From an uncultured Gammaproteobacteria bacterium (lineage in GTDB: Bacteria > Pseudomonadota > Gammaproteobacteria > Steroidobacterales > Rariloculaceae): 64,000 bases of DNA. The stretch is taken from contig CAVSMD010000001.1 in NCBI GenBank assembly GCA_963728995.1, positions 244,358 to 308,357 of the forward strand, in the 5' to 3' direction. Within the stretch, counting starts at the first letter, position 1; the number at the start of each line of letters is the position of its first letter. This document shows positions 8,024 to 60,045 of this stretch, piece after piece. The translations under genes were made by a program, and so were the position numbers. The notes beneath the pieces were generated by a model. It was given only the letters and a program-made list of their open reading frames with translations, was not told the origin of the DNA and ran no database searches.

Positions 8024-10428
8024 TTGGGACCACGCACGATTTCGTCCTTTGGCATCGCCGCGGCCGCCGCCCTGCTCGGCGCCGCGTGGCTCGGGCTGCG
8101 CGACCACGACCCCGCGGACCGCGCATTGACGGCGAAGACGCTCACCCGCTACTGCCGCGACTGCCACGACGAGCTGTCCCAGTCGGGCGACGTCGTGCTC
8201 GACCCGGCCGCGCTGGCGGACATCGGCGGGCATGCGGAGCTCTGGGAGAAGGTCGTGCGGAAGCTGCGCGCGCGGAACATGCCGCCGGCCGGCAACCCGC
8301 GGCCGGGCGTCGGCACCTACGACCACATTGCGACGTTTCTGGAGACGGCGCTCGATCGAGCCGCCGCGGTCGCGCCGAATCCCGGCACGCTGCCGCAGCT
8401 GCATCGCCTGACGCGCACCGAGTACCGCGACACCATCCGGGACCTGCTCGCGCTCGACGACCTGCCCGCGGAAATGGACTACCGAGCTACTGCTGCCGGC
8501 CGACAATGCGAGCAGCGGTTTCGACAATATCGCCGACCTCTTGTTCGTGTCGCCCGCGATCATGGAGCGCTATCTCGAAGCGGCGCGCAAGTTGAGCCGG
8601 CTCGCCGTCGGCGATGCCGACATGCCGGTCATGGTCAACATCCACCGGCTGCCGTTGCAGCAGCCGCAGGACGAAGAGGTCGAAGGCCTGCCGCTCGGTA
8701 CGCGCGGCGGCCTGCTCACCGATAGCTACTTCCCGCTCGATGCCGAGTACGTCGTGCGCGTGGAGCTCGAGCGTCGGCCGCGCGAGCGGCACGAGCTTGC
8801 GATCAGCGTCGACGGCGCGCGTGTGGCCGACACTCTGATCGGCGTGCGCGACGACGCCGGCCGCGCGCAGGGCACGTTCGAGTTTCGTGTGCCCGTCGAC
8901 GCCGGCCCCCATCGCGTCGGCGCGACGTTCGTCGCGCGCACGGCCGCGCTCGACGAGCGCATCGTGCGCCAGCTCAGGCGCAGCCGCGGCACGCTGCCGG
9001 CCATCGAGGCCGTGACGATCAGCGGCCCCTACTCGCCGACCGGCCCCGGCCGCACGCCGAGCCGCGAGCGTCTGTTCAGCTGTCATCCGACGGCGACCGC
9101 GGAGGAGACGCCCTGCGCACGCGAGATCCTGACGACGCTCGCCCGGCGCGCGTATCGGCGGCCGGTCACGAAGACGGACGTCGACGAGCTGTGGCCGTTC
9201 TACGAGGCGGGCCTTGCGCAGCGCGGCTTCGAGCGCGGCATTCAGCGCGCGCTCGAGCGCGTGCTCGTGAGCCCGCAGTTCTTGTACCGCATCGAGCGCG
9301 TGCCGCCGGGCACGACGCGCGGGCAAGCCGTTCGAGATCTCGCCCGTCGAGCTCGCTTCGCGGCTGTCGTACTTCCTCTGGAGCAGCATGCCGGACGACG
9401 AGCTGCTCGGGGCCGCCGAGAACGGAACGTTGAGCGACCAGAACGTGCTGTCGCGCGAGATCGGCCGGCTGCTCGCCGATCCGCGCTCGGACGCGCTGGT
9501 CGACAACTTCGCCGCGCAATGGCTGTTCCTGCGCGACGTGGAGCATCGCGATCCGGATCTGTTCCTGTTCCGCGACTACGACGAGAACCTGCGCCGAGCG
9601 TTCGTCACCGAGACCGAGCTGTTCGTCGGGAGCGTGTTCCGCGAGCCGCGCAGCGTGCTCGATCTCATCACGGCGAACTACACGTTCGTCAACGAGCGGC
9701 TCGCGCAGCACTATGGCATTCCGCACATCCGCGGCAGCTACTTCCGCCGCGTCGAGCTGCCCGCGAAGGGTCCACGCGGCGGGCTGCTCGGTCAGGGCAG
9801 CATCCTGAGGCTCACGTCGTACCCGACGCGGACGTCGCCGGTCCTGCGCGGCAAGTTCGTGCTCGACAATCTGCTCGCCTCTCCGCCGCCGCCGCCGCCG
9901 GCGGACGTGCCGGCGCTGGTGGCGCCGACGGCCGAGGAAGGCGAAACGCTGACCATGCGCGCCGCCATGGCCGCGCATCGCGCCAATCCGCAGTGCGCGG
10001 CGTGCCACGCGCAGCTCGATCCGATCGGCTTTGCGCTCGAGCAGTTCGATGCCGTCGGCCGCTGGCGCGACGAGGACGGGGGCCAGCCCATCGAGACCGC
10101 GAGCGAGCTGCCCGACGGCACCAGGATCGACGGGATCGCGGGCGTGAAAGCCATGCTCGTCGACGATCCGGAGCGGTTCGTGACGGCCCTGACCGAAAAG
10201 CTGCTGATGTATGCCCTGGGCCGCAACATCCAATACTATGATTTGCCGGCCGTGCGGCGCATCGTGCGGTACGCGGCCGCGCGGCAGTACACGTTCAGAT
10301 CCATCGTGGAAGGTATCGTGACCAGCGTGCCGTTCCGGCAGCGCTGGCTGCCGCCGGCGAAGCCGCCGCGCGGCACCACCGTCGCCGCGCTGGAAACGAC
10401 CGCGGCACCGTCGACGGAGAGCCAGTGA
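8024..10428 (+). CDS. DUF1592/DUF1585/DUF1587/DUF1588/DUF1595-type multi-domain haem-c protein (copy 1), disrupted as read
   Basis: N-terminal anchor, CxxCH (YCRDCH), MPPAGNPRP motif, SRLSYFLWSS motif and a C-terminal CAACHAQLDPIGF. Frame changes at ~8480 and ~9330 join ORFs 8024.., 8541.. and 9388..10428. Family assignment is from remembered signatures. Confidence 0.85.
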
Positions 10429-11768
10429 TGTTCGTGACGAAGAAAGCCCTGACGCGTCGCGCCTTGCTGCGCGGCGCCGGCGCCACGTTGGCGCTGCCAC
10501 TGCTCGATGCGATGGTGCCCGCGTTCGGCGCCGACGCACTACGCCCGACGCTGCGGCTCGCCTTCGTCTACGCCGGCAACGGCATCGTACACTCGTACTG
10601 GAAGCCAAAGGCGCCGGGACGCGACTTCGAGCTGACGCCAAACCTGGCTTCGCTGCGCAGCGTGCGCGACGACCTCAACGTGATCACGGGTCTCGCGCAT
10701 GCCCAGGCGGAAACGTTCGGCGACGGCACGGGCGATCATCCGCGCTCCTCGGCCGCCTGGCTCACGGGCGTTCATGCCTACGACCGCACGCGACCCGGCG
10801 TCGAGGTCAAGCTCGCGACGTCCGCGGATCAAATCGCCGCCAACGCCATCGGCCGGGACTCGCCCGTGGCGTCGCTCGAGCTCAGCGTCGACGCGCCGAT
10901 GCAAGGGGCGTGCGACGCCGGCGATTGCTTCTACGTGAACACCGTGTCGTGGCGCAACGAGACCACGCCGAATCTGGCCGAGCTGCACCCGCGGATCGTG
11001 TTCGAGCGCCTGTTCGGCGACGGCGGCTCGAGCCAGCAGCGGCTCGCGCGGGCCCACTCGGCCGTCAGCATATTGGACTCCGTCAAGGACGAAGCGGCGC
11101 GGCTCGCAGCCTCGCTCGGCGCCGGCGACAGCTCGAAGCTCGACGAGTACCTCGACTCGGTGCGCGAGGTGGAGCGGCGAATACAGGGGGTCGAGAACCG
11201 CGGCACGCGGGACGTTGCGCTGCCGGAACGCCCGACCGACATTCCGGAGACCTACGAGGAGCACGCGCGGCTCATGTTCGACCTGCTCAAGCTCGGCTTC
11301 CAGACCGATACGACGCGCGTCGGCAGCATGATCATGGCGCGCGAGCTCTCCGGCCTCTCGTATCCGAACATCGGCGTGCCGGAGTCGCACCATGCGATCT
11401 CGCATCATCGCGGTGATCCAGAGCTCATGGAGAAGAAGGCTCGAATCGATACCTACCACGTGCAGCTCATGGGCGAGTTTGCGGCAAAGATGAAGGCCAC
11501 GCCGGACGGCGACGGCAGCCTGCTCGACCACAGCCTGATCGTCTACGGCGGCGGCATGGGCGACGGTAACCTGCATCGGCATTCGGACCTACCGTGCCTG
11601 CTGCTCGGCCGGCTCGGCGGCACGCTGCGCACGGGCCAGCACGTGGTGTACCCCGATCGCACGCCGATGACGAATCTGCTGCTCACCGTGCTCGACAAGG
11701 TCGGCGTGCGCATGAGCCACTTCGGCGACAGCACGGGTCGGCTCGATCCGGACCTGCTCACGGTCTGA
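10428..11768 (+). CDS. DUF1552 domain protein with twin-arginine signal (copy 1)
   Basis: MFVTKKALTRRALLRGAGATLALPLLDAM is a Tat signal. The ORF is uninterrupted. ATG 10428 shares one nt with the upstream TGA (TGATG), and GGAGAG lies 7 nt upstream. The ORF track starts at GTG 10425. It is the obligate partner of the DUF1592 gene. Confidence 0.9.
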   Translation: MFVTKKALTRRALLRGAGATLALPLLDAMVPAFGADALRPTLRLAFVYAGNGIVHSYWKPKAPGRDFELTPNLASLRSVRDDLNVITGLAHAQAETFGDGTGDHPRSSAAWLTGVHAYDRTRPGVEVKLATSADQIAANAIGRDSPVASLELSVDAPMQGACDAGDCFYVNTVSWRNETTPNLAELHPRIVFERLFGDGGSSQQRLARAHSAVSILDSVKDEAARLAASLGAGDSSKLDEYLDSVREVERRIQGVENRGTRDVALPERPTDIPETYEEHARLMFDLLKLGFQTDTTRVGSMIMARELSGLSYPNIGVPESHHAISHHRGDPELMEKKARIDTYHVQLMGEFAAKMKATPDGDGSLLDHSLIVYGGGMGDGNLHRHSDLPCLLLGRLGGTLRTGQHVVYPDRTPMTNLLLTVLDKVGVRMSHFGDSTGRLDPDLLTV

Positions 11769-12568: not shown

Positions 12569-15500
12569 CTAGAACGCCATCTTCACGCCGACGTACATGC
12601 GACGACCGAGGATGTCGTAGTAGTCCGCGCGCGTGACCTCGGCGTTGCCGTCGGCGGAAGTCGCCCCGACGACGTTCGGCTGCTCGTCGGTCAGGTTGTC
12701 GATACCCATGCGCAGGCTGACCTTGTCGTTGACCATGTAGCCCGCGAACAGGTTCAGCGACTGGTACGAGTCGACGCTGAAGACAGTCGTGTTGGGGTTA
12801 CGTGCGAACGACTCGTCCTTGATGCTCGGCAGGTACCGCCACTGCAGCCCGATGTTGGCCTTGCCGCCACCGAAGTTGTAGCCGAACGTGTTCGTCAGCT
12901 TGTACTTGAACTGGCCGCCGTCCTGCGTCTGCAGCGTGTCCTTCTCGTTGATGATCGGCGAGTCCGGCGTGTCCTGCGTATCGTAGTGATCGAGGAACGT
13001 CATCAGCGAGTTGATGAAGAACGAGCCCGACGCCTAAGTCCTTCGTCCAGTTCACGGCCACGTCGATACCCGTACGTCTTCAAGCTGCCCGTGTTGATGA
13101 ACGGCGCATCGACGGACGCGCGCTCGCCCGACACCGTGTTGCGGAGGATCAACGCACAGTACGGATTGCCGGTGTACGACAGCGTCGGGTTGCTCGTGCC
13201 GTTGGAGTTGAAGCACTGCTGATACGCGAACAGCGAGTTCAACGGCGCAATCGCGTCGGTGATCTCGACGTTGTAGTAGTCGAACGATGCCGTCAGGCCG
13301 TCGAGGCCGCCGGGACTCTGGAGCACGACCCCCAACGTGAACGTATCGCCCTTCTCGGGTTGCACCTTCGGGTTGCCCTGGCGCAGCTCGATCTCGAGCG
13401 GGAAGAACGGGTTGCCGGGCCGCGCGAAGCCGTTCGGACCGGCGGGGCCGATGTCGAACACCGACTGGTTGTCGTTCGTGGGGTCTGCGTCGCTGTTGTT
13501 GATGATCGCGCGGCACAGCGCCTGGACGGCCGCTCGATTCGGGTTATTGGCGGTATTACCCCACAGCTGCCCCGTGCTCACGTCGTTGTGATCGAACGTG
13601 TACGAGCAGGGATCGCTCGGCGCAAACGGCACGACGAGCAACGAGACTCCCTGGAACAGCTCGGCCGTGTTCGGCGCGCGCTCGGCGCGCTGGAAACCGC
13701 CACGCAGCGTAACGCTGTCCGTGGCGCGGAACGTGAACAACGCCTTCGACGTGTCCGTGGTGCCGATGTCCGAGTCCGCGTAGTCCGATTCGCGCAAGCC
13801 GAACTCCATGTCGAACTTCTTCGTGATGGGGACGAGCAACTCGCCGTAGATCTCGGACACCTTCGTTCCGCCGGCCGTGTTGTTCGACGCGAAGATGCTC
13901 ATCGGGTTCTCGACGACGGACTCGCGATCGTTCGTCTCGCCCGGATCGAACTTGAAGGTGTTCCTCCGGCTCGTGGCGCCGACCGCGAACCGCAGCTCGC
14001 CGTTCTTCATGTCGGTGATCTTGCCCTGCAGGTTGAACTCGCCGATATCCTGCTGCAGCTTCTGGACCGAGCGCGCCTTCGCCACGATGCTCTCGATGCA
14101 GTCGGACGACACCTGGCCCGCGCCGAGCGAGGAGCTGGTCGTGAAGATCGGCAGACCGCTCGTGCAGTTCTGGACGTAGTTGCGACCCGAGCTGAACGAG
14201 CCGGCGCCCCAGGTAGCGTTCTGCTGACTCAACAGGTACTGGTAGCGCTGCAACGACGGCAGGTTGTTGAAGAAGCTCAGCGAGTCCGTCTGGCCCGAGG
14301 ACACGTAGGCTTCCCAGGTCCAGTCGCGATTGCTGAACCGGCCCTCGACACCGGCCATGATCTGGAACACGTCGTTCGAGGTCTTGGTCGAGACCGGATC
14401 GCCCATGAAATCGAGCACGCGGAACAGCGTCCAGGGAGCGGTCGGATCCGGGCGCGAGGCGAGCAGCGTTTGCAGCGCGGCCGGAATGGGTCGGCCGTCG
14501 ACCGGGATCGGCGCGGACCAGACCGTGATGGCCGGCGAGAAACCCTGGGTGGTTTGCACTTCCACGCTGGCGTAATTCGCCTGCACGAACGCCGACAGAT
14601 TGTCGTTGATCTCGTGCGTGGCGCGACCGAACAGCGAGCGGCGGGTCAAGGGCGACGAGGCCTGGCCGACATAACTGACCTGGCCGAGATCGCCGTTCGG
14701 CTGCAGCCGCATGCCGGCATAGCCGGCGCCCGTCGGCGTCTGGCTCGACGGGCTGTCGAACGGGCCGTTGTAGCCGCGAGCCTTCGCTAGCAGGAACGGA
14801 CTGCCGTCGGGATTGAAATAGATCTCGGAACGCGGCGTGGCGATGAACCCGCCGGCCGGCATTCCCGTGGTGGAGCCACCCGGGTAGTAACCGGGCACGC
14901 TCGCGAAGACGGAGTCAACAGCCGTCTGGCTCGGCAGACCCCCGCTCGCGGTGCTGCTGCCGGCGCCTAGAATCGCCGTGGTCGGCGAGTAACCGGGCGG
15001 CTGGATGAATCCGCCGGCATTGCTGCCCGGATCGAACCAGCCATTCAGGTAGAAGTCGCGGTCCTTCAACAGGACCTCGCCGCGGTTGTACCACTCGACG
15101 CCGAGCATCACGTTGCTCTTGCCGTCGCCCGGAGTTCACGCCGAGCAAGCTCGTGAAGCGCGTCTCCTCGCCGTCGCCTTCCGCCGTCATGCCGGTCTGG
15201 AAGTCCATGTCGACGCCTTCGAAATCCTTCTTCAGGATGAAGTTCACGACACCGGCCATGGCGTCGGCGCCGTACACGGCCGAAGCGCCGCCCGTGATCG
15301 TCTCGACGCGCTCGATGGCGGCGGACGGAATGGTGTTGATGTCGATGATCAGCGCCGCGTTCGCCGGCTGCGCGCGGCGGCCGTCGATCAGCACCAGGGT
15401 GCGGTTCGGGCCGATGCCGCGCAGGTTCACGCTGCCGATACCGAGCGAGGCCGTCGGGCCTGCCTGAATGCCTTGGTCGAACTGCGTGCCCTCGGGCACG

Positions 15501-15754
15501 AACTGCGGCATCTGGTTCAGGACGCTTTCGATGCTGAGCGTGCTCGAGTTCTCAAGCCGCTTGGTGTCGATCGTCATGATCGGACTTGCGGCCTCGAGGT
15601 CGCGGCGGACGATGCGCGAGCCCGTGACCGTGATTTCCTCCAGTCCCTGGTCCTGCGCGTGCGCCGCGCCCGTCCCCGCCAGCAGGGCGGAGATCGTCGA
15701 CGCGAGCACGGTGCGATTGACGACCTGCGCCTGGTCGCGTGTGTTGGCTTTCAT
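12569..15754 (-). CDS. TonB-dependent receptor (~1060 aa), disrupted as read
   Basis: Signal peptide, plug motifs (EEITVTGSRI, NLRGIGPNRTLVLIDGRR, IERVETITGGASAVYGADA) and a C-terminal RRMYVGVKMAF. ORFs 14915..15754, 13003..15111, 12798..13061 and 12569..13003 are joined by frame changes at ~15120, ~13075 and ~13020. Confidence 0.9.
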
Positions 15755-16089: not shown

Positions 16090-17649
16090 ATGCAATTTTT
16101 TCGCCGCACGCTGATTCTCCTGCACCGCTATCTCGGGATCCCGCTCAGCGCCGTGTTCGTGCTGTGGTTCGCGACGGGGATCGCGATGATCTACGTCGGC
16201 GGCATGCCGGCCCTCGCCCCGCAGGCGCGGCTCGAGCGTCTCCCGCCGCTCGACCTCGCCGCCGTCACGCTCACGCCGACCGACGCCGCCGCACGCGCCA
16301 TGAGCGGCTTCGGCGACGTTCGCCTCACGACGGTGCTCGATCGGCCTGCCTACCGCTTCGACAGCGCCTACGGCTCCGCGACGGTCTTCGCGGACGATGG
16401 GGCCGTGCTCGAGCCGGTCACCGTCGAGACGGCGAAGGACGTCGCCGCGAAGTTCCTCGGCGTCGAGCGGAACGACCTCGATCTGCTCGCGCTGATCGAC
16501 CGCCCCGACCAGTGGACACTGCTGCTCGGGCGCGATCTGCCGCTGTACAAGCTCGGCGTCCGCGACGGCGCCGGCACGCAGGTGTACGTGTCGCCGGACT
16601 CCGCCGAGGTGCGGCTGGTCACGACGCGGCGCAGCCGCGGGCTCGCATGGATCGCCACGATCCCGCACTGGTTCTACATCACGCCGCTGCGCGTCCATCA
16701 GCCGCAGTGGTACTGGACGGTGGTCGTTGCTGCCGCGCTGGGGTGTCTGCTGGCCGTGCTCGGGCTCCTCGTCGGCGTGCTGCAGCTGCGCTGGTCGAAG
16801 CCGTTTCGCTGGTCGAGCGCCATCCGCGCCCAGGGGTGGCTCCGCTGGCATCACCTCCTCGGTCTCGTGTTCGGGGTCTTCGCGCTGACATGGGTCTTCA
16901 GCGGCCTGCTGTCGATGGAGCCGTTCGCGTGGACGAATGCCGAGGGGTTGCAGGTGGGCGACGACGCCCTGTCCGGCGGGCCCGTCGAGCTCGATCGATT
17001 CCCGGCGTTCGACGCCGACCGCTGGCCGGCATTGCTCACCGGTCGCGCGCTGAAGGAGATCGAGTTCCGCCGTGTCGAGGACGAGCCTTACTACCTCGCC
17101 CGGTACACGAGCGCACCGGCCGAGCTCGACCCACACCGCGAGCGACTGCATCAGCCCTATCTCGTCACGGGTCGGGCAGCGCCGGAGCATGTGCTGATCG
17201 ATGCCACCACGCTGGCGGTGCACGCCGACGCGTTCGCGACGGAGTCCCTGCTGGCGCGCCTCTCGGCTGCGGCGGGCGATGCGCGGATCGTCGACCAAAC
17301 GCTGCTGAAGGACTACGACTCCTATTACTACTCGCGCGGCCGGCAAGCACCGTTGCCGGTGCTGCGCGTGAAGTTCGACGATCCTCTCCGCACCTGGATC
17401 TACGTCGACGTGGGGCTCGGTGAGATCGTCGCGACCATCCATCGCTTGAACCGCGTGGAGCGCTGGCTCTACAACGGCTTGCACAGCCTGGACTTCGGCT
17501 TCTGGTACGACCGTCGGCCGCTCTGGGACATCGGCATGATCACGCTGTGCGGCGGCGCGCTCGTGGCAAGCCTCATCGGCCTGTGGCTCGGCCTGAAGCG
17601 TCTGCGGTCCGACGTCGCACGGATCACGCGGCGGCGGGGTCCTGCTTGA
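16090..17649 (+). CDS. PepSY-associated TM helix protein (PiuB-like)
   Basis: MQFFRRTLILLHRYLGIPLSAVFVLWFATGI N-terminus. It also has repeated TM segments with WHHLLG and a RWLYNGLHSLDF C-terminal motif. The 519-aa ORF is uninterrupted. Confidence 0.85.
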   Translation: MQFFRRTLILLHRYLGIPLSAVFVLWFATGIAMIYVGGMPALAPQARLERLPPLDLAAVTLTPTDAAARAMSGFGDVRLTTVLDRPAYRFDSAYGSATVFADDGAVLEPVTVETAKDVAAKFLGVERNDLDLLALIDRPDQWTLLLGRDLPLYKLGVRDGAGTQVYVSPDSAEVRLVTTRRSRGLAWIATIPHWFYITPLRVHQPQWYWTVVVAAALGCLLAVLGLLVGVLQLRWSKPFRWSSAIRAQGWLRWHHLLGLVFGVFALTWVFSGLLSMEPFAWTNAEGLQVGDDALSGGPVELDRFPAFDADRWPALLTGRALKEIEFRRVEDEPYYLARYTSAPAELDPHRERLHQPYLVTGRAAPEHVLIDATTLAVHADAFATESLLARLSAAAGDARIVDQTLLKDYDSYYYSRGRQAPLPVLRVKFDDPLRTWIYVDVGLGEIVATIHRLNRVERWLYNGLHSLDFGFWYDRRPLWDIGMITLCGGALVASLIGLWLGLKRLRSDVARITRRRGPA

Positions 17650-18379
17650 AGAACTGCTTGAGCTGCGCGTAGACGTCGGGATATTCCTGCCGCAGGCGCT
17701 GCGGCACGTCGAAGAACAGCTCCGCGCACACGGCGAAGAGCTCGGCCGAATCCTCCACGGCATACGGGTCCAGCCACGGCTCCACGCCGCGCTCGAGCTG
17801 ATCGACGAGATCGTCGTACGCTGCGTCGAACGCGGCGACCCATTCCGGCACGCGCATGCCGGCGTGCAGCGGCGGCACGCCGTTGGCCTCACCGCTCAGC
17901 ATGTCGAGCTTGTGGGCGAGCTCGTGGATCACGACGTTGTAGCCTTCGCCGCGCCCGCTCAGCTCGACCTCGGTCCAGGCGAGCACCACGGGGCCCTGCT
18001 CGAACGCCTCGCCGCTCAACAGGTCGTCGCCGACATGGACGACGCCATCCTCGTCCTCGTACATGCGATCGCGGACCAGGAACTCATCCGGATGCACGAC
18101 GAGGGACAAGAACCCGGCATAGGCGTCTAGGCCCAGCTCGAGAATCGGCAGGCACGCGAAGGCGGCGATCCGCAGCCGTTTCGCGTCGTCGAGCACCAGG
18201 CCGCCGGCGGGCTCGAAATGCTTCTCGTGCAGGAACAGCACGGCGAGCTCGCGTAGCCGGCCCTGCTGCGCGGCATTGAGGCGCCCCAGCGCGGGCACGG
18301 ACGCGGCCAGCGTCGTCCAGAGGGCGTCGGGAATCGAGCGACGGGCCAGCACGCGCCGCCGGCGCCAACGCCTGAACAT
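17624..18379 (-). CDS. mtfA: zinc-dependent peptidase MtfA (M90 family)
   Basis: MFRRWRRRR N-terminus, HELAHKLD zinc motif and YAVEDSAELFAVCAELFF C-terminal motif. Its 3' end overlaps the convergent PepSY gene by 26 nt. Confidence 0.8.
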   Translation of the reverse strand: MFRRWRRRRVLARRSIPDALWTTLAASVPALGRLNAAQQGRLRELAVLFLHEKHFEPAGGLVLDDAKRLRIAAFACLPILELGLDAYAGFLSLVVHPDEFLVRDRMYEDEDGVVHVGDDLLSGEAFEQGPVVLAWTEVELSGRGEGYNVVIHELAHKLDMLSGEANGVPPLHAGMRVPEWVAAFDAAYDDLVDQLERGVEPWLDPYAVEDSAELFAVCAELFFDVPQRLRQEYPDVYAQLKQFFKQDPAAA

Positions 18380-18438: not shown

Positions 18439-19350
18439 TCAGCCGAGATGCTGCTTGAAGAACGCCAGAGTTCGCTCCCACGCAAGGTTCGCGGCCGCCT
18501 CGTCGTAGCGCGGTGTGGAATTGTTGTGGAAGCCGTGCTGCGTGCCCTCGTAGCTGTATCTCTGGTACTCGACCTTGTTCGCCTTCAGCGCCGCTTCGTA
18601 CTCCGGCCACATGCCGTTGATACGGTCGTCGTTGCCGGCGTATTGCAGCAGCAAGTGCGCCTTGATCTTGGCGACGTCGTCAGCCGCCGGAGCGGCTCCA
18701 TAGAACGGCACGCCGGCGCTCAAGTCCGGGCCGAGCGCCACGGCCAGGTTGTTGACCATGCCACCCCCCCAGCAGAACCCCGTGGCACCGAGCTTGCCGC
18801 TCGACAGCGCATGCGTTTTCAAATACCGGGCGCTGTTGACCATGTCCTGCCGCAGCTTCGCCTGATCGAGCCCGGCCTGGAGCGTGCGGCCGTCGTCGTC
18901 GTTGCCCGGATAGCCGCCGGCCGGCGCCAAGCCGTCCGGCGCGAGCGCGAGGTACCCGGCCACGGCGACGCGCCGCGCGACGTCCTCGACGTAGGGGTTC
19001 AGGCCGCGATTCTCGTGGATCACGAGCACCGCCGGAAACGGGCCATTGCCGGCCGGCTGCACGAGGTAGCCGCGCATCTGACCGGAGTTGCCACCCGGCG
19101 AGGGATACTCGACGTACTTCGCCTTGATCCGCGAGTCCGTGAACGAGATCGTCTGTGCCTCGACGTAGCGCGGAAACAGCGCCTGCGCCAGGGCGAGCGC
19201 CGAGACGCCCCCGATCACGAGCGCGCCCGCGCGAGCCAGGAACTCCCGCCGATCGATGCGCCCGTGGCAGTACTCGTCGTACAGATCGTACACACGCTGA
19301 TCGATGGCGATCTGCGTGGCTCGGTCGACGGCATGGGGTTCGGCGGCCAT
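18439..19350 (-). CDS. dienelactone hydrolase family protein (Tat-type signal)
   Basis: RREFLARAGALVIGG signal, VLVIHENRGLNPYVEDVARR, GATGFCWGG nucleophile elbow and HGFHN C-terminal motif. Confidence 0.85.
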   Translation of the reverse strand: MAAEPHAVDRATQIAIDQRVYDLYDEYCHGRIDRREFLARAGALVIGGVSALALAQALFPRYVEAQTISFTDSRIKAKYVEYPSPGGNSGQMRGYLVQPAGNGPFPAVLVIHENRGLNPYVEDVARRVAVAGYLALAPDGLAPAGGYPGNDDDGRTLQAGLDQAKLRQDMVNSARYLKTHALSSGKLGATGFCWGGGMVNNLAVALGPDLSAGVPFYGAAPAADDVAKIKAHLLLQYAGNDDRINGMWPEYEAALKANKVEYQRYSYEGTQHGFHNNSTPRYDEAAANLAWERTLAFFKQHLG

Positions 19351-19511: not shown

Positions 19512-20564
19512 ATGCGCATCGCCGGCACAGTCCTGGTCTCGTTCACCGCCGCGCTCGTCGCGCCCGTCGTCGCGGCGCACCACAGCTTCGCGCCGCATTT
19601 CGACATCTCCAAGCCCGTGAGCATCTCCGGCACCGTCACGCAGTACGAGGCACGCAACCCCCACAGCTATCTGCACATCGCCGCCGTCGACGAAAACGGC
19701 AAGACGCAGGAATACGTGTGCGAATCACACGGCTACACGCAGCTCACGCGCAATGGCATCACACCGGAGATGCTGAAGCCCGGGACGAAGCTGCGGATCG
19801 ACGGCTCGATGTCGCGGCATAGCCAGTATCAGTGCTTCTTCAACAACCTCTATTTCCCGGACGGGCGCGCGCTGAACGTCAATGGGCCCACGGGCCCGCA
19901 GAGCGTCCGGGCGCCGGGCCCGACCTTGCCGGCGCGCCATGACCTCTACGGCACCTGGTTGCTCGCGCCGATCCTCAACCGCAGCACGAGCGGCCCGCAG
20001 CCGATGATCGAGGCCCTGACGCCGGCAGGACGGGCGGCCGTCGCGGCCTACGACCCGTTCAAGGACGACCCGACCTTCCGCTGCGATCCCGTCGCCATCC
20101 GCCGCGTGTGGGGCGCGCCGGGCACGCCGCTGTCGATCACGCGCGACGGCGATCGAGTCGTGCTCCGGCACGAGTGGATGGACGTGGAGCGCATCGTGCA
20201 CCTCGACCAGCGCGAGCACCCGCAGGACGGGCCCCGCAGCTCGCTCGGTCATTCGATCGGCCACTTCGAAGGCGACACGCTCGTGATCGACACCGGCAAC
20301 TACGCGGCCGGCGTGCTGAATCAGTACGTGGAGCAACCCGGTCAACCGACGCGTGGGCTGCTGCATTCGGCCGCGCTGACGTCCGTGGAGCGGCTGCACT
20401 TCGACGCGGCGCGGCAACGACTCGTCGTCGAGATCACGCTGCAGGACCCCGAGTTCTTCACGCGCGATTTCGAGCCGGCGCACTACGAGTACGCGCCGTC
20501 CGAACTGAAGCTCGAGCCGTTCAACTGCTCGCCCGAGGGCGTCGGCGGCACCCTCAGAAGATAA
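19512..20564 (+). CDS. secreted fusion protein: AHHS/NPH small-protein domain (DUF6152-like) + WEGDTLV-family domain
   Basis: ATG 19512 follows GGGGGAG. The signal ends VVAA|HHSFAPHFD and is followed by GTVTQYEARNPHSYLHI. The C-terminal half carries FRCDPVA, LDQREHP, GHFEGDTLVIDTGNY and FNCSPEG. Confidence 0.8.
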   Translation: MRIAGTVLVSFTAALVAPVVAAHHSFAPHFDISKPVSISGTVTQYEARNPHSYLHIAAVDENGKTQEYVCESHGYTQLTRNGITPEMLKPGTKLRIDGSMSRHSQYQCFFNNLYFPDGRALNVNGPTGPQSVRAPGPTLPARHDLYGTWLLAPILNRSTSGPQPMIEALTPAGRAAVAAYDPFKDDPTFRCDPVAIRRVWGAPGTPLSITRDGDRVVLRHEWMDVERIVHLDQREHPQDGPRSSLGHSIGHFEGDTLVIDTGNYAAGVLNQYVEQPGQPTRGLLHSAALTSVERLHFDAARQRLVVEITLQDPEFFTRDFEPAHYEYAPSELKLEPFNCSPEGVGGTLRR

Positions 20565-22036: not shown

Positions 22037-23044
22037 ATGCCATTACGCAAAATTTACCCGGCCCTGCTGGCCGCCACCGTCCTGGCGGGCTGCTCGGCCG
22101 AAGAATCGCCCCCCGCCGCCTCGGCGGACGCTTATGTCGTGCCGCGCACGGCATGGGACGATCCGGACCTGCAAGGCATGTGGCCCATCGACAAGCTGAA
22201 CGGCACGCCGGTGCAGCGGCCCGAGGCCTTCGGCGAGCGCCGCTATCTGACGGACGCGGAATACGCCGAGCGCGTCGACCGGCTCCAGGGCTTGAACGCC
22301 CGCTATGACCAGGAGGTCGCGAGCCGCAAGATGGGTATCGGCCACTGGGCCGAGATGGGCCAGCCGAATCGGCTGACCTCGCTGATCGCGGAGCCCGCGA
22401 ACGGCCGCGTTCCGCCGCTGACGGCCGAGGGCGAGCGCCGCGCCGCAACGATGACGAGCAGCTGGTCGAACATCCCGTTCGACGAGGTCTCGGACTTCAA
22501 CCCGCTCGACCGCTGCATCACGCGCGGGCTGCCGGCGTCCATGTTCCCATTCATGTACAACAGCGGCATCGAGATCATGCAGGCCCCGGGCTACGTCGTG
22601 ATTCGGCTCGAGCTGATTCACGAGACGCGAGTCGTGCCGCTCGACGGCCGGGCGCCCTTGGCGCCGCAGATCGCGCAGTGGCTCGGCAGCTCGCGCGGCC
22701 GCTTCGACGGCGACACGCTCGTGATCGAAACCGGCAACTTCAACGGCGAGTCGCCCATGCTGATCGTCGGACCCGGCGGCAAACCGATCCCGACGAGCAC
22801 GCAGCTGCACATCGTCGAGCGCCTCACGCGGGTCGGGCCCGACAGCCTCGACTACGAGATCGCGGTCGAGGATCCCGTCGTGCTGACGCGGCCTTGGAAG
22901 GCGGCGTTCCCGATTCCGCGCGACGATCACTATCGATTCTTCGAATACGCGTGCCACGAGGACAATTCGGCCGTGCGGAATTTCATCACGGCATCGCGTT
23001 TCGAACGTCAACACCCAGCACACGCGGCGGCGAAATCCAAATGA
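22037..23044 (+). CDS. WEGDTLV-family lipoprotein
   Basis: MPLRKIYPALLAATVLAGC lipobox. Motifs: DRCITRGLP, RVVPLDGR, GRFDGDTLVIETGNF and FEYACHEDN. Confidence 0.8.
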   Translation: MPLRKIYPALLAATVLAGCSAEESPPAASADAYVVPRTAWDDPDLQGMWPIDKLNGTPVQRPEAFGERRYLTDAEYAERVDRLQGLNARYDQEVASRKMGIGHWAEMGQPNRLTSLIAEPANGRVPPLTAEGERRAATMTSSWSNIPFDEVSDFNPLDRCITRGLPASMFPFMYNSGIEIMQAPGYVVIRLELIHETRVVPLDGRAPLAPQIAQWLGSSRGRFDGDTLVIETGNFNGESPMLIVGPGGKPIPTSTQLHIVERLTRVGPDSLDYEIAVEDPVVLTRPWKAAFPIPRDDHYRFFEYACHEDNSAVRNFITASRFERQHPAHAAAKSK

Positions 23045-24990: not shown

Positions 24991-25818
24991 ATGGCCGGAA
25001 TCAAAACGTGGCTGCTGGCTGGCGCAGCGCTCGCCGCGACCCACGTCGCCTTCGCGCAAACCGCCGCGGAACGGCGCGAAAAGTTGAGCGGCATGATCCC
25101 GAAGCACGAAGGCTACCTGGGCGCGCTCGCGCCCGAGAACCTGAAGAAGCCGCGTCCGGCGCCCCCGTTCGATGTGACCGGCACCTGGTTCGTGGATCTC
25201 AGCGAGGGTTTCGCGAAGTTCATGTTCGGCCCGCCGTACCCCGAGTTCATCGGGCAAGCCAAGGCCGACTTCGAGGAAGGTCAACGCATGCGCGCCGAGC
25301 GCAAGTCGTACCGCGACGCCATCGGCCAATGCTTCCCGGCCGGCATCCCGATGATCATGACGCGCGTCTGGCCGATCGCCATGATTCAGACGCCCACCGT
25401 GATCTTCATGGTGTCGAACTTCAACGACAGCTTTCGGCAGATCTTCCTCGACGGTCGCGACTACTCCGACCCGAACACCATCATCTATACGTATAACGGC
25501 GAATCCCTGGGCCACTTCGAAGGCGATACGCTGGTCGTCAATACGCGTTATATCGAGACCTACAATCATTACATCGATACGGGCATCCCGATCTCCGAGC
25601 AGTTCCGGGTCCAGGAACGGATGCGGCTGCTCGAGAAAGGCGAGGTGCTCGAGATCGAGTACATCATGACGGACCCGGTCAACTGGAAAGGCGAATGGCA
25701 CAACACCAAGCGCTGGCTACGCGTGGATCACACGGACATCGGCGAGGTCGAATGCTTACCGGACTTGAACGACAACCTGCCCAGCACCCAAGCCGGGAAG
25801 GTGGGCCTCCAGAAGTGA
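24991..25818 (+). CDS. WEGDTLV-family secreted protein
   Basis: ATG 24991 follows GGGGGA. Signal MAGIKTWLLAGAALAATHVAFA. Motifs: GQCFPAGIP, IFLDGRD, GHFEGDTLVVNT and EVECLPD. Confidence 0.8.
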   Translation: MAGIKTWLLAGAALAATHVAFAQTAAERREKLSGMIPKHEGYLGALAPENLKKPRPAPPFDVTGTWFVDLSEGFAKFMFGPPYPEFIGQAKADFEEGQRMRAERKSYRDAIGQCFPAGIPMIMTRVWPIAMIQTPTVIFMVSNFNDSFRQIFLDGRDYSDPNTIIYTYNGESLGHFEGDTLVVNTRYIETYNHYIDTGIPISEQFRVQERMRLLEKGEVLEIEYIMTDPVNWKGEWHNTKRWLRVDHTDIGEVECLPDLNDNLPSTQAGKVGLQK

Positions 25819-25836: not shown

Positions 25837-26268
25837 ATGAAGACGCTGATAAGGATCGCGACACTGGCGGCAGCCGCCGCCGTCGCAATGCTCGGCATGC
25901 TGCCGGCAAGCGCTCACCACTCCACGGCGGCGTTCGACACGGCGCGCGTGATCAAGATCACGGGCACCGTCACGCAATTCCGCTGGATCAATCCGCACGC
26001 TTCGTTCAAGGTCGACGGCGTCAGCGAAGGCGACGAGCCCGACGGCCTGTGGACCGTCGAGATGACGGCGCCGAACGTGCTGATCAACCAGGGCTGGACG
26101 CGTACCGCGCTGAAGGTCGGCGACAAGGTCACGATCTACGTGAACCCGTTGCGCAACTTCATCGAGCTGAACGACGGCAGCCACGGCTCGCTGTACGTCG
26201 GCGTCGTGCTCGCCGACGGCAAGACGCTCGGCCGCACCGACGGCAAGGGCTCCGGCACCAGCAACTAG
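25837..26268 (+). CDS. AHHS/NPH small secreted protein (DUF6152-like)
   Basis: 143 aa. The signal ends PASA|HHSTAAFD and is followed by ITGTVTQFRWINPHASFKV. The gene starts 18 nt after the preceding WEGDTLV gene. Confidence 0.8.
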   Translation: MKTLIRIATLAAAAAVAMLGMLPASAHHSTAAFDTARVIKITGTVTQFRWINPHASFKVDGVSEGDEPDGLWTVEMTAPNVLINQGWTRTALKVGDKVTIYVNPLRNFIELNDGSHGSLYVGVVLADGKTLGRTDGKGSGTSN

Positions 26269-27123
26269 GCCGAGCGGCGCGCGAGCGCGGCAAACTGCCG
26301 CTGCAGGCCTACGACGCGCTCGACATAGGCGTGCGCGTCGTGCGCGCCGCACCGCTGACCGGGCGCAAACCGCAGACCTCGACGCGCGTATTCCCGCGCG
26401 GCACCGGCTCCGCACAAATGCAGCATCGCCGCCAGGCGCTGCTTCTGCTGCAAGCTCGCCCCCTGCACCGGATAACGCTGGAGAATCAGCGCCACGTTCC
26501 GATCGAGATAGGCCGACGTGAGCTCGACCGCGTGCGAGGGGATCGTGCGTGTGTACAGCGCGTTGAACCAGCACGAACGCACGCGAGTACCACGGCCCCT
26601 GCTCGACCACGCGGTGATCATGGATGCAGTAACGGCGCGCGGCCGCGAACGTGGCATCCGTGACCTGGTACATGCCGACGGCGCTCGACGCCGGCCGGAA
26701 GATCGCGAACGGGTCGAACGATGCCGCCCACCGCCAGTAGGTTCGCACGACGGGATTGCCCGAGCCTTCGACCTGCGCCAGCGCCGCGAGCAGATCCGGC
26801 GTCATGACGCTCGTCGAGTGCCGCTCGAACAGCGCCCCATAGGCGTCCCACGTCTCGGCCGGGCCCTTATAGAAGGCCTCGCTGACGGGAAACCAAAGCT
26901 CGGAAGGCTTGCGGACGACCTGATAGGCCCAGTTGATGCCGAGCCAGAGCACGACCAGGACGAATGCCGAGAGCAGCACCTGCAACGTCGGCGGCGTGCG
27001 GCGCACCAGGCGCACGAGCCGACGGCGCGTGCGCGCGCTCGGCAGCAGGCGCGCCAGCCGGAAGCGGCGCGAGCGCTTCGATTTGCGTTTCTTGTGCGTC
27101 CGCCGTAACGATCTCGGCGCCAT
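26265..27123 (-). CDS. lytic transglycosylase (SLT) domain membrane protein, disrupted as read
   Basis: Basic N-terminus, a TM helix, [10 protein letters not shown] (catalytic Glu region) and VGMYQVTD. One frame change at ~26580 joins ORF 25756..27123 to ORF 26265..26657. Confidence 0.65.
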
Positions 27124-37574: not shown

Positions 37575-37742
37575 GGGCGAGTCTCCTGCGACGAGGAACG
37601 TGGAGGCGCCACCGGCTGAGTGACCGGCATCGACAAATCTTGCCACAGCGCGACCACGGCGGTGCGGCCCCGAGGCCACGGGTCCGGGACCGAGCGGTCG
37701 CGGCTGGACTCGCTCAGGCGGCTCATCTATAAACGGCTGGAT

Positions 37743-40189
37743 ATGAACCGCTCGCGCCTCATCGCTGGCACGGCCCTCGCGACGGGCATTGCGGCCACCG
37801 CCGTGCTCGTCGCGTCCCGGACCGAGCTGTTCGCCGACCGCGGCGCCGCGCAATGGAGCATGCTCGGCCGGTACTGCATGGACTGTCATAACGCCGCAGA
37901 AGCAGAAGGCAACGTCGTGTTCGAGGGCCTGAAGCCCGAGAGCGTGGCGCAGCACGCGGCGCTGTTCGAAAAGGCCGCGCGCAAGCTACGCGGCCGCTTG
38001 ATGCCGCCGCCGGGCAACCCGCAACCCGGGCAGGCCGATCTCGACGCCTTCGTCGGCTGGCTCGAGCGCTCGATCGACAAGGGCGCCGGTGCGCACACGG
38101 CCGGCCACGTGCCGGCGCAGCGGCTCACGCGCACGGAGTACGCGGCCGCCGTGAAGGACTTGCTGGCCGTCGACATCGACCCGGCGCAGTACCTGCCGAA
38201 CGAGCAGGAGGTGGACGGCTTCGACAAGATCGCGGCCGCGCTCAGTGTCTCGCCGACGTTCCTCGAGCAGTACCTGGGCGTGGCGCGCCGCGTCGCGCAC
38301 CTCGCGGTCGGGGAGCCCGTGCCGAAGCTCACCAGCGCCTACTTCCCGCCGCCTTCGGGCGATCAGGACGGCTACGTGGACGGCATGCCGCTCGGCACCC
38401 GCGGCGGCGTGAAGTTCACGCACGATTTTCTCGCCGACGGCGAATACCACGTGAACATCACGGATCTCGACGTGGGCCTGTACCCGCGCTCGCTCGAGAC
38501 CGAGCACACGCTCGTGATGCTGCTCGACCGCAACGAGGTGTTCCGCGCGCAGCTCGGCGGCGAGGAAGACCTCGCGCTCGTCGATCGCGGCGGCGCGCCG
38601 GGACGCGCCGAGATCATGCGCCGCTTCGCCGACATACCGCTCGAGATCACGGCCGGCACGCACGAGCTGGCGATCACGTTCATCGAGCGCTCGCGCGCTT
38701 CGACCGACGAGCCGATCTTCGGCTTCACGCCGTACGGCGGGTTCTCCTTCACCGGGCAGATGCGTGCGCCGCGCGTGATCGGCGGCATCGAGGTCAAAGG
38801 ACCGTTCGGCGTCACGGGCCTGTCGAGCACGGCAAGCCGGCAAAAGATCTTCGTGTGCACGCCGGAGAATGCGGCCGCGGAGCGCGGCTGCGCGGAGCGA
38901 ATCGCCGCGAAGCTCGCGCGCCGGGCGTTTCGCCGCCCCGTCGATCAGAGCGACATCGACCGGCTGATGCCGTTCTACGAGAACGGCCGGAAAGCCGCCG
39001 GCGGCTTCGACGCCGGCATCGAGCAGCTCGTGACGGCGATTCTCGCGAGCCCCGATTTCCTGTATCGCGCGATCACGCCGCCGGCCGGTCGCTCGGAGCA
39101 GGATACCTTCGCGTTGAACGATCTCGAGCTGGCCTCGCGCCTGTCGTTCTTCCTCTGGAGCCAGGGCCCCGACGAGGAGCTGCTCGATCTCGCCGCCGAA
39201 GGCAAGCTGCACGACGAGCGCGTCATCACGCAGCAAGTCGCGCGGATGCTGGAGGATGCGCGGGCCGAGTCGCTCGTCACGGATTTTGCGCTGCGCTGGC
39301 TCAACGTCGACGAGCTCGATTCCGTCGACCCGGACGATCGACTTTTTCCCGAGTGGGACGACGCGCTGCGCGACGACTTCGCGCAGGAGATCGAGCTGTT
39401 CGTCGCCAGCGTGCTGCTCGACGGCCGCAACGTGCAGGACCTGCTGACGGCCGACTACACGTTTCTGAACGAGCGGCTCGCGCGCCACTACGGCGTGCCG
39501 GGCGTGCGCGGCCCGCAATTTCGCCGCGTGCATCTCGACGACGAGCGCCGGCGCGGCCTGCTCGGCAAGGGCGCCGTGCTGCTGCGCACCTCGTACGGCG
39601 ATCGCACGTCACCCGTGCTGCGCGGCGCGTGGGTGCTCGACAAGCTCATGGGCACGCCCCCGACGCCGCCGCCGCCGAACGTCGAACATGGATCTCTCGA
39701 CGAAGCCCGGCGAGAAACCGAAGACGATCCGCGCTCGGCTCGAGCTGCATCGTCAAGACGCCGTCTGCAACGGCTGTCACGGCGTGATCGACCCCTATGG
39801 CTTGGCGCTCGAGAATTTCTCCGCGACGGGCCAGTGGCGCGAAGTCGATCGTCAAGCGGGGCAGCCGATCGACGCGAGCACGAAGCTGCCCGGCGGTGCG
39901 CCGATCACGGGCCCCGTGGAGCTGCGCCAGGCGCTGCTGAAGCACCCCGACCAGTTCGTGCAGGCGCTGACGCGCAAGCTCATGATGTATGCCTTGGGAC
40001 GCGAGCTTCAGTTCCACGACATGCCGCAGGTCCGGGCCATCGTGCGCGACGCGGCGAAGCGCAACTACACGTTCGCCGCGCTCGTGAACGGTGTCGTGCG
40101 CGAGCGACGCGTTCCGGCTGCAGGCCCCATCCGAGCCGCTCGTCGAAACCGGCCGCGGCCGTGACCGCCCGCAACACGACCTTGAATAG
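37743..40189 (+). CDS. DUF1592-type multi-domain haem-c protein (copy 2), disrupted as read
   Basis: YCMDCH, MPPPGNPQP, SRLSFFLWSQ and CNGCHGVIDPYGL motifs. Frame changes at ~39688 and ~40100. The end is placed at TAG 40187-40189 (DAFRLQAPSEP.. frame) and is uncertain by +/-25 nt. Confidence 0.85.
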
Positions 40190-40219
40190 CGCGCTATCGA
40201 CCGAGCAGAGGTAATGCCC

Positions 40220-41568
40220 ATGTTCGTGACGAAGAAACATCTGTCGCGGCGCGCGATGCTCAAAGCCGGCGGCGTGGCCGTCGCACTGCCGCTGCTCGAC
40301 GCGATGATCCCGGCGGCCACGGCGCTCGCGCAGACGGCGGCTAAGCCTGCGCTGCGCGTGGGCTTCTTCTACATTCCGCACGGCGCGATCCTGTGGAACA
40401 CCGCGTTCGGCAAGGAGATGGACCACTGGACGCCCGAGCGGCGCGGGCGAGAGTTTCAAGCTCTCGCCCGATCATGGAGCCGCTCGAGAAATACAAGCGC
40501 TACGTCACGTCGTTCGGCAACCTCGAGAACAAGGCGAACCAGAACTCCGTGCACGCGATCGTGCCGGCCACGTGGCTCTCGGCCGTGCGGCCGGACCAGA
40601 GCTCACCCGGCGCGCACATGGCGGCCACGATCGACCAGCTCATCGCCGCGAAAATCGGCCAGGAGACGGCGCTGCCCTCGCTCGAGGTGGCGTCCGAGAC
40701 CACGACGCAGGTCGCCGCCTGCCCGTCCGGCGCCGGCTGCTACTACAGCACGACGCTGTCGTTTCGCAACGCCACGTCGCCGCTGCCGATGGAGTTCAAT
40801 CCGCGCAAGGTGTTCACGCAGCTGTTCGGCGAAGGCGACACGCCGGAAGAGCGCAACGCCATCGCCGCGCAGACGAAGAGCCTGCTCGACCTGATCAGCG
40901 ACCGCACGGCGGCGCTCAAGCTTACGCTCGGCGCCGGCGACCGCGTGGTGCTCGACGAGTATCTCGACACGGTCCGCGAGATCGAGCGGCGCGTCGCGAA
41001 GGCCGAGCAGCGCGATCTCTCCGGCATCACGCTGCCGGAGGCGCCGGTCGGCGAGCTCGATTCGTTCGACGCGCAGGTCAAGCTCATGTTCGACCTGATC
41101 GCACTCGCCTACCAGGCCAATCTCACGCGCGTCGCCTCGTACATCATGGTGGCCGAGGGCACGAACCGCACGTACAACCACATCGGCGTGTCCGACGCGT
41201 TCCATCCGCTGTCGCACCACGCCAACGACAAGGAGCGGCTGCTGAAGCTCGTGAAGATCCAGCGCTACCACATGGAGCGCTTCGCCGACTTCGTCGCGAA
41301 GCTCGCGGCCACGCCCGAGGGCGACGGCACGCTGCTCGATCACTCGATGCTGATGTACGGCTCGAACATGAGCAACAGCGACCGGCACAACAACTACCCG
41401 CTGCCGAACATCCTCGTCGGCGGCGGCGTCGGGCGACTGAAAGGCGGCCAGCACATCGACCTGCCCGAGCACACGACGCTCGCGAATCTGCACCTCACCG
41501 TGCTGAACAAGGCCGGCCTGGATCAGAAGAGCTTCGCCGACGCCTCGGGCGAGATCGCGGGCGTGTGA
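40220..41568 (+). CDS. DUF1552 domain protein with twin-arginine signal (copy 2), disrupted as read
   Basis: MFVTKKHLSRRAMLKAGGVAVALPLLDAM (AGAGG lies 8 nt upstream; the ORF track starts at ATG 40214). Two frame changes at ~40440 and ~40468. The rest is colinear with copy 1. Confidence 0.85.
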
Positions 41569-41575: not shown

Positions 41576-42492
41576 ATGATCGCCCGGCGCACATTGCTCC
41601 GCAGCGCACTCGGCGCCACCGTCGCCGCCGCGCTGCCGCGCGCGTTTGCCGCATCCGCCGTCGCCGTCGCACGACTCGGCGACGACCTGGCGCTGCTCAC
41701 CGGCGCCGGCGGCAACGTGCTCGCGCTCACGACCTCGGACGGCGCTCGTGCTCGTCGACAGCGGCGCCGCCGGCGCCACGGCGGAGCTGCTCGCCGCCGT
41801 CGGCAAGCTGCCGGGCGGCACGCGAATCCGCACGCTGTTCAACACGCACTGGCACCACGAGCAGACCGGCGGCAACGAGGCCATCGGCCGCAGCGGCGCC
41901 ACGATCGTCGCGCACGAGAAGACACGGCAGCGGCTCGCGATCGGCTACTACTTGCCGGCCGAGGATCGCTACGAGCAGCCCGTGCCGGTCGCGGCGCAGC
42001 CGACCGAGAGCTTCTACACGACCGGCGAGACGAAGATCGGCGGCGCAGCGCATCGAGTACGGCTACTTGCTCGAGGCGCACACCGACGGCGATTGCTACG
42101 TGTTCTTCCGCGACGCGAACGTGCTCGCGGTCGGCGACGCCGTGTCGCCCACGCGCGATCCCGAGCTCGACTGGTTCGGCGGCGGCTGGCTCGGCGGGCG
42201 CGTCGACTCGCTCGATCTGCTGCTGAAGCTCGGCAACGACCGCACGAAGTACGTGCCGAGCTACGGCCCGGCCGTCGGCCGCGCGGCCGTGCAGCAGGAG
42301 CGCGACATCATGCTGAAGCTGTTCGAGCGCTTCGTCGACCTCGTGCGCAAGGGGATGAGCGCCGACGACATTTTCGCCGCGGGCATCATGAACGACACGG
42401 GCCGGACTTGGACCGATCCCGCGAAATTCGTGCGCGATGCCTTCAAGGGATTCTGGGCGCATCACAACACGTTGTCGCCCGACATCGTCTGA
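41576..42492 (+). CDS. MBL-fold metallo-hydrolase with variant metal motif, Tat-like signal, disrupted as read
   Basis: ARRTLLRSALGATVAAAL signal. NTHWHHEQTGGN replaces the canonical HxHxDH. HTDGD is present. Frame changes at ~41745 and ~42050. Confidence 0.8.
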
Positions 42493-42510
42493 CTCGTGAC
42501 GAGGCCACGC

Positions 42511-60041: not shown

Positions 60042-60045
60042 CGTC

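Follow-up and report, generated by a model that had tools for sequence, protein, structure and literature searches.

A 64-kb stretch of contig CAVSMD010000001.1 from an uncultured gammaproteobacterium (68% G+C; the window, meaning the whole stretch of DNA analyzed) encodes four proteins in which a His-His pair, predicted to form the mature N-terminus, is followed by an Asn-Pro-His (NPH) motif. A six-frame search for the pattern HH-(20–45)-NPH recovered exactly four such proteins, hereafter copies A, B, C and D. A hidden Markov model built from the four detected no fifth member with E < 1 among all six-frame open reading frames of at least 50 amino acids, and the five copies counted in the initial annotation of this DNA are thus reduced to four. 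The suggestion in that annotation that the proteins belong to DUF6152 is borne out by a Pfam profile search, in which copies A, B, C and D score 93.7, 70.3, 52.2 and 69.9 bits respectively, all above the gathering cut-off of PF19649 (27 bits); no NCBIfam model matches any of the four. The motifs are present as originally quoted, with PASA-HHS in copy A, PAGA-HHS in B, SVSA-HHG in C and VVAA-HHS in D, and the second motif, which had been placed about 30 residues further on, reads WINPH, FRNPH, YMNPH and ARNPH respectively and lies 27 residues past the first His.

Copy A (25837–26268, plus strand; 143 amino acids; assigned by PF19649 and an AlphaFold2 model) starts at an ATG behind a GAGGA Shine-Dalgarno sequence, 18 nt past the stop codon of the upstream gene; a scan for promoters and terminators around it found none. 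Its predicted signal peptide spans 25837–25914, and the codons of the residues discussed below lie at 25915–25920 (His27-His28), 25936–25938 (Asp34), 25990–25998 (Asn52-Pro53-His54) and 26059–26061 (Glu75), all on the plus strand. Copy B (60900–61301, minus strand) encodes 133 amino acids, and its TGA stop codon overlaps the ATG of the downstream gene (TGATG). Copy D (19512–20564, plus strand) is a fusion in which a signal peptide, a DUF6152 domain and a linker precede a second domain (approximately residues 140–345); its HH is at residues 23–24 and its NPH at residues 49–51. It has 1781 homologues, of which the best 120 are approximately 350 amino acids long. Copy C (57748–58251, minus strand) is frameshifted: its first in-frame start is a TTG at 58185, only seven residues before HH, and the ATG at 58251 is shifted by one frame relative to the body of the gene. 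Since orthologues with 90–92% identity (loci L093–L095) read through intact as MxxxRRR...LCALVAG...SVSA-HHGSS, copy C is judged from this alignment to carry a 1-nt insertion near 58218–58222, as an assembly error or a pseudogene. Another apparent 1-nt frameshift affects a metallo-beta-lactamase (MBL)-fold gene at 61298–62587 (at approximately 61815–61900), the C-terminal part of which lies in a different frame, that of the open reading frame 61321–61815, and the minus-strand gene downstream of copy A (26265–27123) is possibly split over two frames. Together, these frameshifts suggest long-read assembly indel errors rather than three pseudogenes.

The residues preceding the His-His pair resemble a Sec signal peptide throughout the family. 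In the window copies, cleavage by signal peptidase I directly before the pair agrees with the (−3,−1) rule, with a hydrophobic core and with the 22–30 residues that precede HH. The claim that each copy places HH behind a good signal-peptidase site fits the motif at all four loci, though copy C lacks an in-frame signal peptide. Among 239 diverse DUF6152 members, for which cleavage was judged by sequence rules ((−3,−1) rule, hydrophobic core and length), the HH...xPH pattern occurs in 237, with a median of 24 residues before HH (10th–90th percentile, 21–33) and a hydrophobic core in 97%. The residue at −1 is Ala in 89% of these members and Gly, Val or Thr in the rest, that at −3 is Ala, Val, Leu, Ser or Gly, and sequence conservation starts exactly at A-H-H across the family. 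These features are those of a Sec signal peptide cut just before HH, from which His-His is predicted to form residues 1 and 2 of the mature protein. With His predicted at positions 1 and 2 and Ser, Gly or Ala at position 3, the proteins do not have the His at mature position 3 that defines an amino-terminal copper- and nickel-binding (ATCUN) motif, which would be possible only in a subfamily reading PA-WVHH, if this is cut two residues earlier.

Conservation of polar residues is concentrated on the same few positions. In 250 DUF6152 sequences, non-redundant at 70% identity and partly retrieved with motif patterns, His27 and His28 (copy A numbering) are each 100% conserved, and the NPH motif is nearly so (Asn52, 97.6%; Pro53, 99.6%; His54, 99.6%). 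Glu75 (96.8%), Trp72 (92.8%) and Asp34 (90.8%) follow, and the remaining positions conserved at 95% or above are glycines. The only invariant polar residues are thus three histidines together with one or two carboxylates, a composition typical of a metal site. An attempt to detect a contact between the N-terminal segment and the NPH loop by mean-field direct-coupling analysis (613 aligned sequences; effective number, Meff, 330) returned gap artefacts as its top pairs. It might be supposed that HH after a signal peptide is coincidental and was brought about by paralogy or annotation, and the four window copies are indeed paralogues, whose shared residues alone prove little. However, these paralogues share only 27–35% identity, yet A-H-H and N-P-H are invariant among them, HH is universal in the 250 non-redundant sequences from three phyla, and paralogues found in the flanks of other loci, which were not selected by motif, show HH after a small residue in 40 of 41 cases and HH...xPH in 39 of 41. 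Because the pattern persists in all three sets, it is, on the evidence of these alignments, far beyond chance, and HH is moreover lost specifically in internal domains; the probability left to coincidence is negligible.

Tandem and fused proteins bear directly on whether the N-terminus itself matters. Chains of the form DUF6152-DUF6152 were found in seven representative clusters (P0126, P0130, P0132, P0135, P0144, P0213 and P0254), in all of which the first domain carries AHH and NPH and no internal domain retains the complete motif. Four of the seven internal domains lack the HH segment, and six have another residue in place of the loop His; that of P0126 alone keeps the loop His (as DPH), but without HH. 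The pair and the loop His thus stand or fall together, and as a His in an internal domain cannot carry a free amine, their loss there bears on an N-terminal site. The internal domains are also observed to retain the fold of the family while the HH/NPH site has degenerated. Where DUF6152 is fused to the second type of domain found in copy D, it is N-terminal in all 11 representative clusters and in all listed copy D orthologues; as separate genes, the two occur more commonly in the order with DUF6152 second (64 versus 36). Since internal domains lose HH or the loop His and fusions always place DUF6152 first, the data point to a site needing a free N-terminus, and match what a site using a free α-amino His would predict.

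Pfam lists DUF6152 without an assigned function. When 1.84 billion representatives were searched with a profile built from the four copies, 14 736 clusters (50% identity) matched at E ≤ 1e-3 and 7317 at E ≤ 1e-10. The AlphaFold2 model of copy A, computed from a 113-sequence alignment, has a mean predicted local distance difference test score (pLDDT) of 89.2 and a predicted template-modelling score (pTM) of 0.76. It comprises strands at residues 39–49, 56–63 and 70–75, a helix at 79–84, and strands at 97–105 and 116–124, an order (β1-β2-β3-α-β4-β5) that is that of the oligonucleotide/oligosaccharide-binding (OB) fold. Foldseek searches of the PDB gave only weak OB-fold matches for copy A (Rim1/SSB, the anticodon-binding domain of LysRS and cold-shock domains; best E 2.7e-3), with no match at E ≤ 1e-3 for either DUF6152 or its partner described below, only generic OB-fold and FABP-like ones. 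Sequence and profile searches of PDB chains found no meaningful solved relative, and by its predicted structure DUF6152 is an OB-fold family without one. Literature searches found no paper on DUF6152, nor any on a histidine brace combined with an OB-fold.

Every DUF6152 copy in the window adjoins, or is fused to, a member of a second secreted family of approximately 250–330 amino acids, hereafter the partner, which occurs seven times in the window and was not linked to the His-His proteins in the initial annotation, although it is the one conserved neighbor of DUF6152. The partner of copy A (24991–25818, plus strand; 275 amino acids; signal peptide ...VAFA/QT) ends 18 nt before it, and the partner of copy B (60046–60900, minus strand; 284 amino acids from the ATG at 60900; signal peptide ...VALA/QP) begins within its stop codon. 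The partner domain of copy D forms the C-terminal half of the fusion (19914–20561, plus strand). Copy C lies between a partner downstream (56666–57661, minus strand; 331 amino acids; matching the partner of A with a phmmer E of 4.7e-15) and, directly upstream, a fusion of a partner barrel domain to an MBL-fold domain (58290–60041, minus strand; MBL residues approximately 326–493, Lactamase_B 2.9e-19). Two further paralogues have no adjacent DUF6152 gene: one at 46658–47698 (plus strand), followed by a GDSL lipase (47700–48983), and one at 22037–23044 (plus strand), which has the lipobox LAGC and is probably a lipoprotein.

The linkage extends well beyond this genome. In 80 genome loci, which were retrieved with a 19-sequence subfamily alignment and are therefore biased to A-like sequences (their flanks providing the unselected paralogues mentioned above), a partner gene lies within 400 nt on the same strand for 100 of 137 DUF6152 domains (73%), often in the arrangement partner-DUF-DUF-partner. 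These loci belong to uncultured Gammaproteobacteria (including Candidatus Rariloculus and Steroidobacteraceae), Sphingomonadales, Caulobacterales, Hyphomonadaceae, Bryobacteraceae and other Acidobacteriota, and the same linkage is present in metagenomic contigs. The partner of copy A has no Pfam or NCBIfam match even at E = 10, and sequence and profile searches of the PDB gave no match for the family, which would merit its own family definition. The model of fusion D (pLDDT 84.5, pTM 0.81) suggests by its pTM that the two domains pack together. The best folds for its C-terminal domain are the barrels of cellular retinoic-acid- and fatty-acid-binding proteins (CRABP and FABP), at a weak level (Foldseek E 2.4e-3; target-normalized template-modelling score 0.56–0.65); for the partner of A, the evidence on fold is only its membership of the same family as this domain. 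Membership of the calycins is tentatively suggested by these matches and by an invariant, lipocalin-like GxW, with no match at the sequence level. The family also has two invariant cysteines, which probably form a disulfide, a conserved block GxSxGHWEGDTLVV, and invariant or near-invariant Arg149, Glu209, Arg210 and Asp228; no His is invariant.

The pairing allows a reading in which DUF6152 holds no metal of its own. The tail HHSxAx(F/Y)D would instead contact a protein or cofactor, either plugging the partner barrel or giving an axial His to haem or another tetrapyrrole in a nitrobindin-like manner, with NPH and Glu75 anchoring the tail. In keeping with this, the partner is a ligand-type barrel without an invariant His, the models show a flexible HH tail, and genes for TonB-dependent receptors and cytochromes are occasional neighbors. 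However, internal domains have lost the site as a whole, including those whose partner context is the same, the approximately 27% of DUF6152 members without an adjacent partner still keep the full motif, and three histidines with carboxylates around a free N-terminus are the classical signature of direct metal binding. A contact tail of this kind is considered quite unlikely.

Two other readings concern the traffic of metals and are judged against the gene neighborhoods. In the window, copies B and C belong to a minus-strand cluster (55465–63174) in the order TetR, MBL, B, partner, partner-MBL, C, partner, MBL, headed by a TetR-family regulator (62455–63174) and ending in the third MBL-fold gene (55465–56529); in the frameshifted MBL gene upstream of B, Lactamase_B covers profile positions 13–74 only. 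The best NCBIfam matches of the MBL domain are to 'quinoprotein relay system zinc metallohydrolases', far below the cut-offs. On the strength of such neighbors, DUF6152 might be, as was proposed in the initial annotation, a metallochaperone for adjacent metallo-hydrolases, dedicated to loading them with a metal such as zinc: B and C share their cluster with three MBL-fold genes, one of them fused to a partner domain, and copy A lies near an SMP-30/gluconolactonase-like gene. The arrangement is nevertheless local to the window. A census compared the 128 nearest non-family neighbors in 65 loci with 128 genes of those loci that lie 3 kb or more away. Neither MBL nor metal-homeostasis genes figure in the 25 commonest families of near neighbors; what adjoins DUF6152 elsewhere is cytochrome c, DUF6644 or nothing of note, and copy D and its orthologues have unrelated, variable neighbors. 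The census and its distance-matched control led to rejection of a general chaperone for neighboring metallo-hydrolases, and a dedicated one is very improbable.

The wider proposal, in which DUF6152 would be a periplasmic scavenger or chaperone of Cu, Ni or Zn that hands the metal to an importer or to clients, with the barrel as an accessory, has more in its favor. All characterized bacterial N-terminal-His proteins other than lytic polysaccharide monooxygenases (LPMOs) are assigned to metal binding or transport (PMC10952591, PMC12537917, PMC8424229), and in the census TonB-dependent receptors and DUF6644 each account for 8 of 128 near neighbors against at most 2 of 128 in the control. Cytochrome c (8/128 near, 3/128 control) and pyrroloquinoline quinone (PQQ) dehydrogenases (6/128 near, 3/128 control) are also represented, as are the TetR, MarR, SnoaL and cytochrome b561 families. 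Against trafficking, metal-responsive regulators, P-type ATPases, CopCD, Cus, Znu and Nik are absent from the neighbors, where TetR and MarR are found instead; the pairing is with a hydrophobic-ligand-type barrel without a conserved His; and paralogy is heavy for a chaperone, with four copies in 64 kb here and up to five in 16 kb elsewhere. Metal trafficking is thus rated unlikely. A recurrent order of partner, DUF6152, one or two DUF6644 genes and cytochrome c is seen in several of the loci (L006, 5146–8191; L007; L002, 6001–6920; L005, 4379–6429). DUF6644, on which the literature search likewise found no papers, is a membrane protein of approximately four transmembrane segments with a weak DUF2214 match. 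The partner-DUF6152-DUF6644 arrangement is reminiscent of CopC and CopD, a periplasmic binder that goes with a membrane protein.

The preferred explanation, to which a probability of roughly 0.6 is assigned, is that DUF6152 is an OB-fold metalloprotein, periplasmic or secreted, which holds its metal at an amino-terminal His-His and forms a unit with the FABP-like barrel. Cleavage by signal peptidase would expose His-His as mature residues 1 and 2, and the α-amine and imidazole of His1, together with His2, the NPH His on the β1-β2 loop, Glu75 and possibly Asp34, would bind one divalent transition-metal ion. Such a site would be an amino-terminal one resembling a histidine brace, and its metal is guessed in the first place to be Cu(II); with as many as six potential donors, Ni, Zn, Fe or an octahedral ion could also fit. 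DUF6152 would form a 1:1 unit with the secreted FABP/lipocalin-like barrel, encoded by the adjacent gene or by a C-terminal fusion as in copy D. The barrel may hold a small hydrophobic or anionic molecule, which the metal site would bind or oxidize. A ligand-handling module seems likelier than metal trafficking because of the heavy paralogy, the TetR-type regulators and the ligand-type partner barrel; the surroundings of the pair are rich in hydrolase and redox genes, with regulators of TetR/MarR type, and are not operons for metal homeostasis. Taken furthest, the pair would be a two-component periplasmic metallo-oxidase or oxygenase, in which a histidine-brace center of copper or another redox metal, at the N-terminus of the OB-fold subunit, acts on small hydrophobic or carboxylate substrates held by the barrel and which has diversified, with numerous paralogues each specific for its substrate, in sphingomonads, Steroidobacteraceae-like Gammaproteobacteria, Caulobacterales and Acidobacteriota; this extension is speculative and, as it stands, rather doubtful.

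Several observations weigh against the metalloprotein proposal or its parts. Since the conservation figures were taken from the best-scoring members, they may be higher than those of the family as a whole. Approximately 6% of members have Val at −1 (the ...PAWV-HHSG subfamily; alignment A5, P0392–P0414 and others), which would make a poor signal-peptidase site; a cut two residues earlier would yield W-V-H-H, with His at positions 3 and 4 in an ATCUN-type arrangement. The HH segment is modelled with moderate to low confidence (pLDDT approximately 62 for residues 21–30 of A and below 50 for residues 1–25 of D). No genes for copper, nickel or zinc homeostasis occur among the near neighbors, which therefore give no hint of the identity of the metal, and the enrichments of TonB-dependent receptors, cytochrome c, DUF6644 and PQQ dehydrogenases are weak relative to the control. 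The ligand-handling or oxidative role, finally, is drawn only from context and paralogy.

Further genes were noted in the remainder of the window. Copy D is preceded by a TonB-dependent receptor fragment (12569–15754), a PepSY-TM protein (16090–17649), an M90 metallopeptidase (17624–18379) and a dienelactone hydrolase with a YqhI-like N-terminus (18439–19350), none of them conserved in orthologous loci. Two gene pairs (9388–11768 and 37620–41568) each encode a PSD/PSCyt-domain protein (DUF1585, DUF1587, DUF1588, DUF1592, DUF1595) and an HXXSHH protein (DUF1552), and such a pair also adjoins a DUF6152 gene in the metagenome locus L008. A long open frame at 41580–44042 combines a weak N-terminal metallo-beta-lactamase match with ankyrin repeats; an ankyrin-repeat gene is likewise found beside the PSD/HXXSHH pair in L008.

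To our knowledge, N-terminal-His metal proteins are few, and each new one has opened chemistry or metal biology. DUF6152 is a very large and entirely uncharacterized family, with an N-terminal-His signature cleaner than those of the validated families. If it binds metal, it would add an OB-fold scaffold to a class so far made up of LPMOs, particulate methane monooxygenase (pMMO), CopC, YcnI, DUF4198 and the anglerases, and if the oxidase proposal is true, it would extend histidine-brace enzymes for the first time beyond LPMO and pMMO chemistry and onto an OB-fold. DUF6152 and its barrel constitute a testable two-protein unit with a natural fusion in copy D, and carriers include cultivable strains of Novosphingobium, Sphingobium (S. 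xanthum) and Altererythrobacter as well as Aurantiacibacter xanthus, making genetics feasible. As judged from these comparisons, the principle of an N-terminal His metal site appears familiar, and what appears new is the OB scaffold, the invariant His-His pair and the unannotated barrel partner.

There are precedents for such a site. A conserved N-terminal His after a signal peptide has marked real, experimentally confirmed metal sites in DUF4198 (Ni), DUF6702 and the anglerases Ang-1 and Ang-2 (Nat Commun 2025, PMC12537917), and the same principle holds in pMMO and, with Cu(II), in CopC, YcnI, PmoF1 and LPMOs (PMC10952591, PMC8424229). The logic of these signal-strapping families, in which a conserved N-terminal His predicts a metal site in a DUF family, is that applied here to DUF6152, which is not mentioned in the 2025 survey of N-terminal-His families (PMC12537917). 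The N-terminal His is present in only 65–79% of the members of the surveyed families, against 100% in the DUF6152 set; DUF6702 and the anglerases share a β-sandwich, DUF4198 has its own divergent fold, and none is described as an OB-fold (PMC12537917).

CopC/PcoC, YcnI (DUF1775) and PmoF1, bacterial copper proteins of the periplasm with a histidine brace or mono-histidine brace, are likewise small and secreted; in them a His exposed by signal cleavage binds metal through its amine and imidazole, and the remaining ligands are a distal His, a carboxylate or both. The DUF6152 candidates His1, His54 and Glu75 or Asp34 resemble the His1/Asp/His set of CopC (PMC10952591). In contrast to DUF6152, with its predicted OB-fold, these proteins are Ig-like or cupredoxin-like β-sandwiches; DUF6152 further differs in its second invariant His at position 2, its pairing with a barrel protein and the lack of CopD, YcnJ or a copper operon. 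Homology to CopC, YcnI or LPMOs is not indicated: Pfam and PDB sequence searches gave no matches to them, and the fold is OB rather than sandwich. LPMOs (AA9–AA17) and the CuB site of PmoB, the canonical copper histidine braces, also share a His1, predicted at the mature N-terminus in DUF6152, and a second conserved His elsewhere, but DUF6152 has no homology to them, a different fold, and neither a flat substrate-binding surface nor a carbohydrate context. CusF, a periplasmic Cu(I)/Ag(I) metallochaperone, resembles DUF6152 in compartment, size and OB-fold class, and the two align co-linearly in hhalign; homology was rejected at a probability of only 3.3%, obtained with a manually entered CusF sequence. 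The His/Met/Met/Trp site of CusF on β2-β3 has no counterpart in DUF6152, which has no conserved Met and no Cus operon.

For the partner, the nearest likeness is to FABP, CRABP and lipocalins, with which it shares an N-terminal GxW and a predicted barrel of 10–11 strands, where a helical insert follows the first of them. It differs from FABPs in being secreted, in its conserved Cys pair, in being about twice their size and in the weakness of the structural match (E 2.4e-3). Invariant Arg residues of the partner could bind a carboxylate, as in FABPs.

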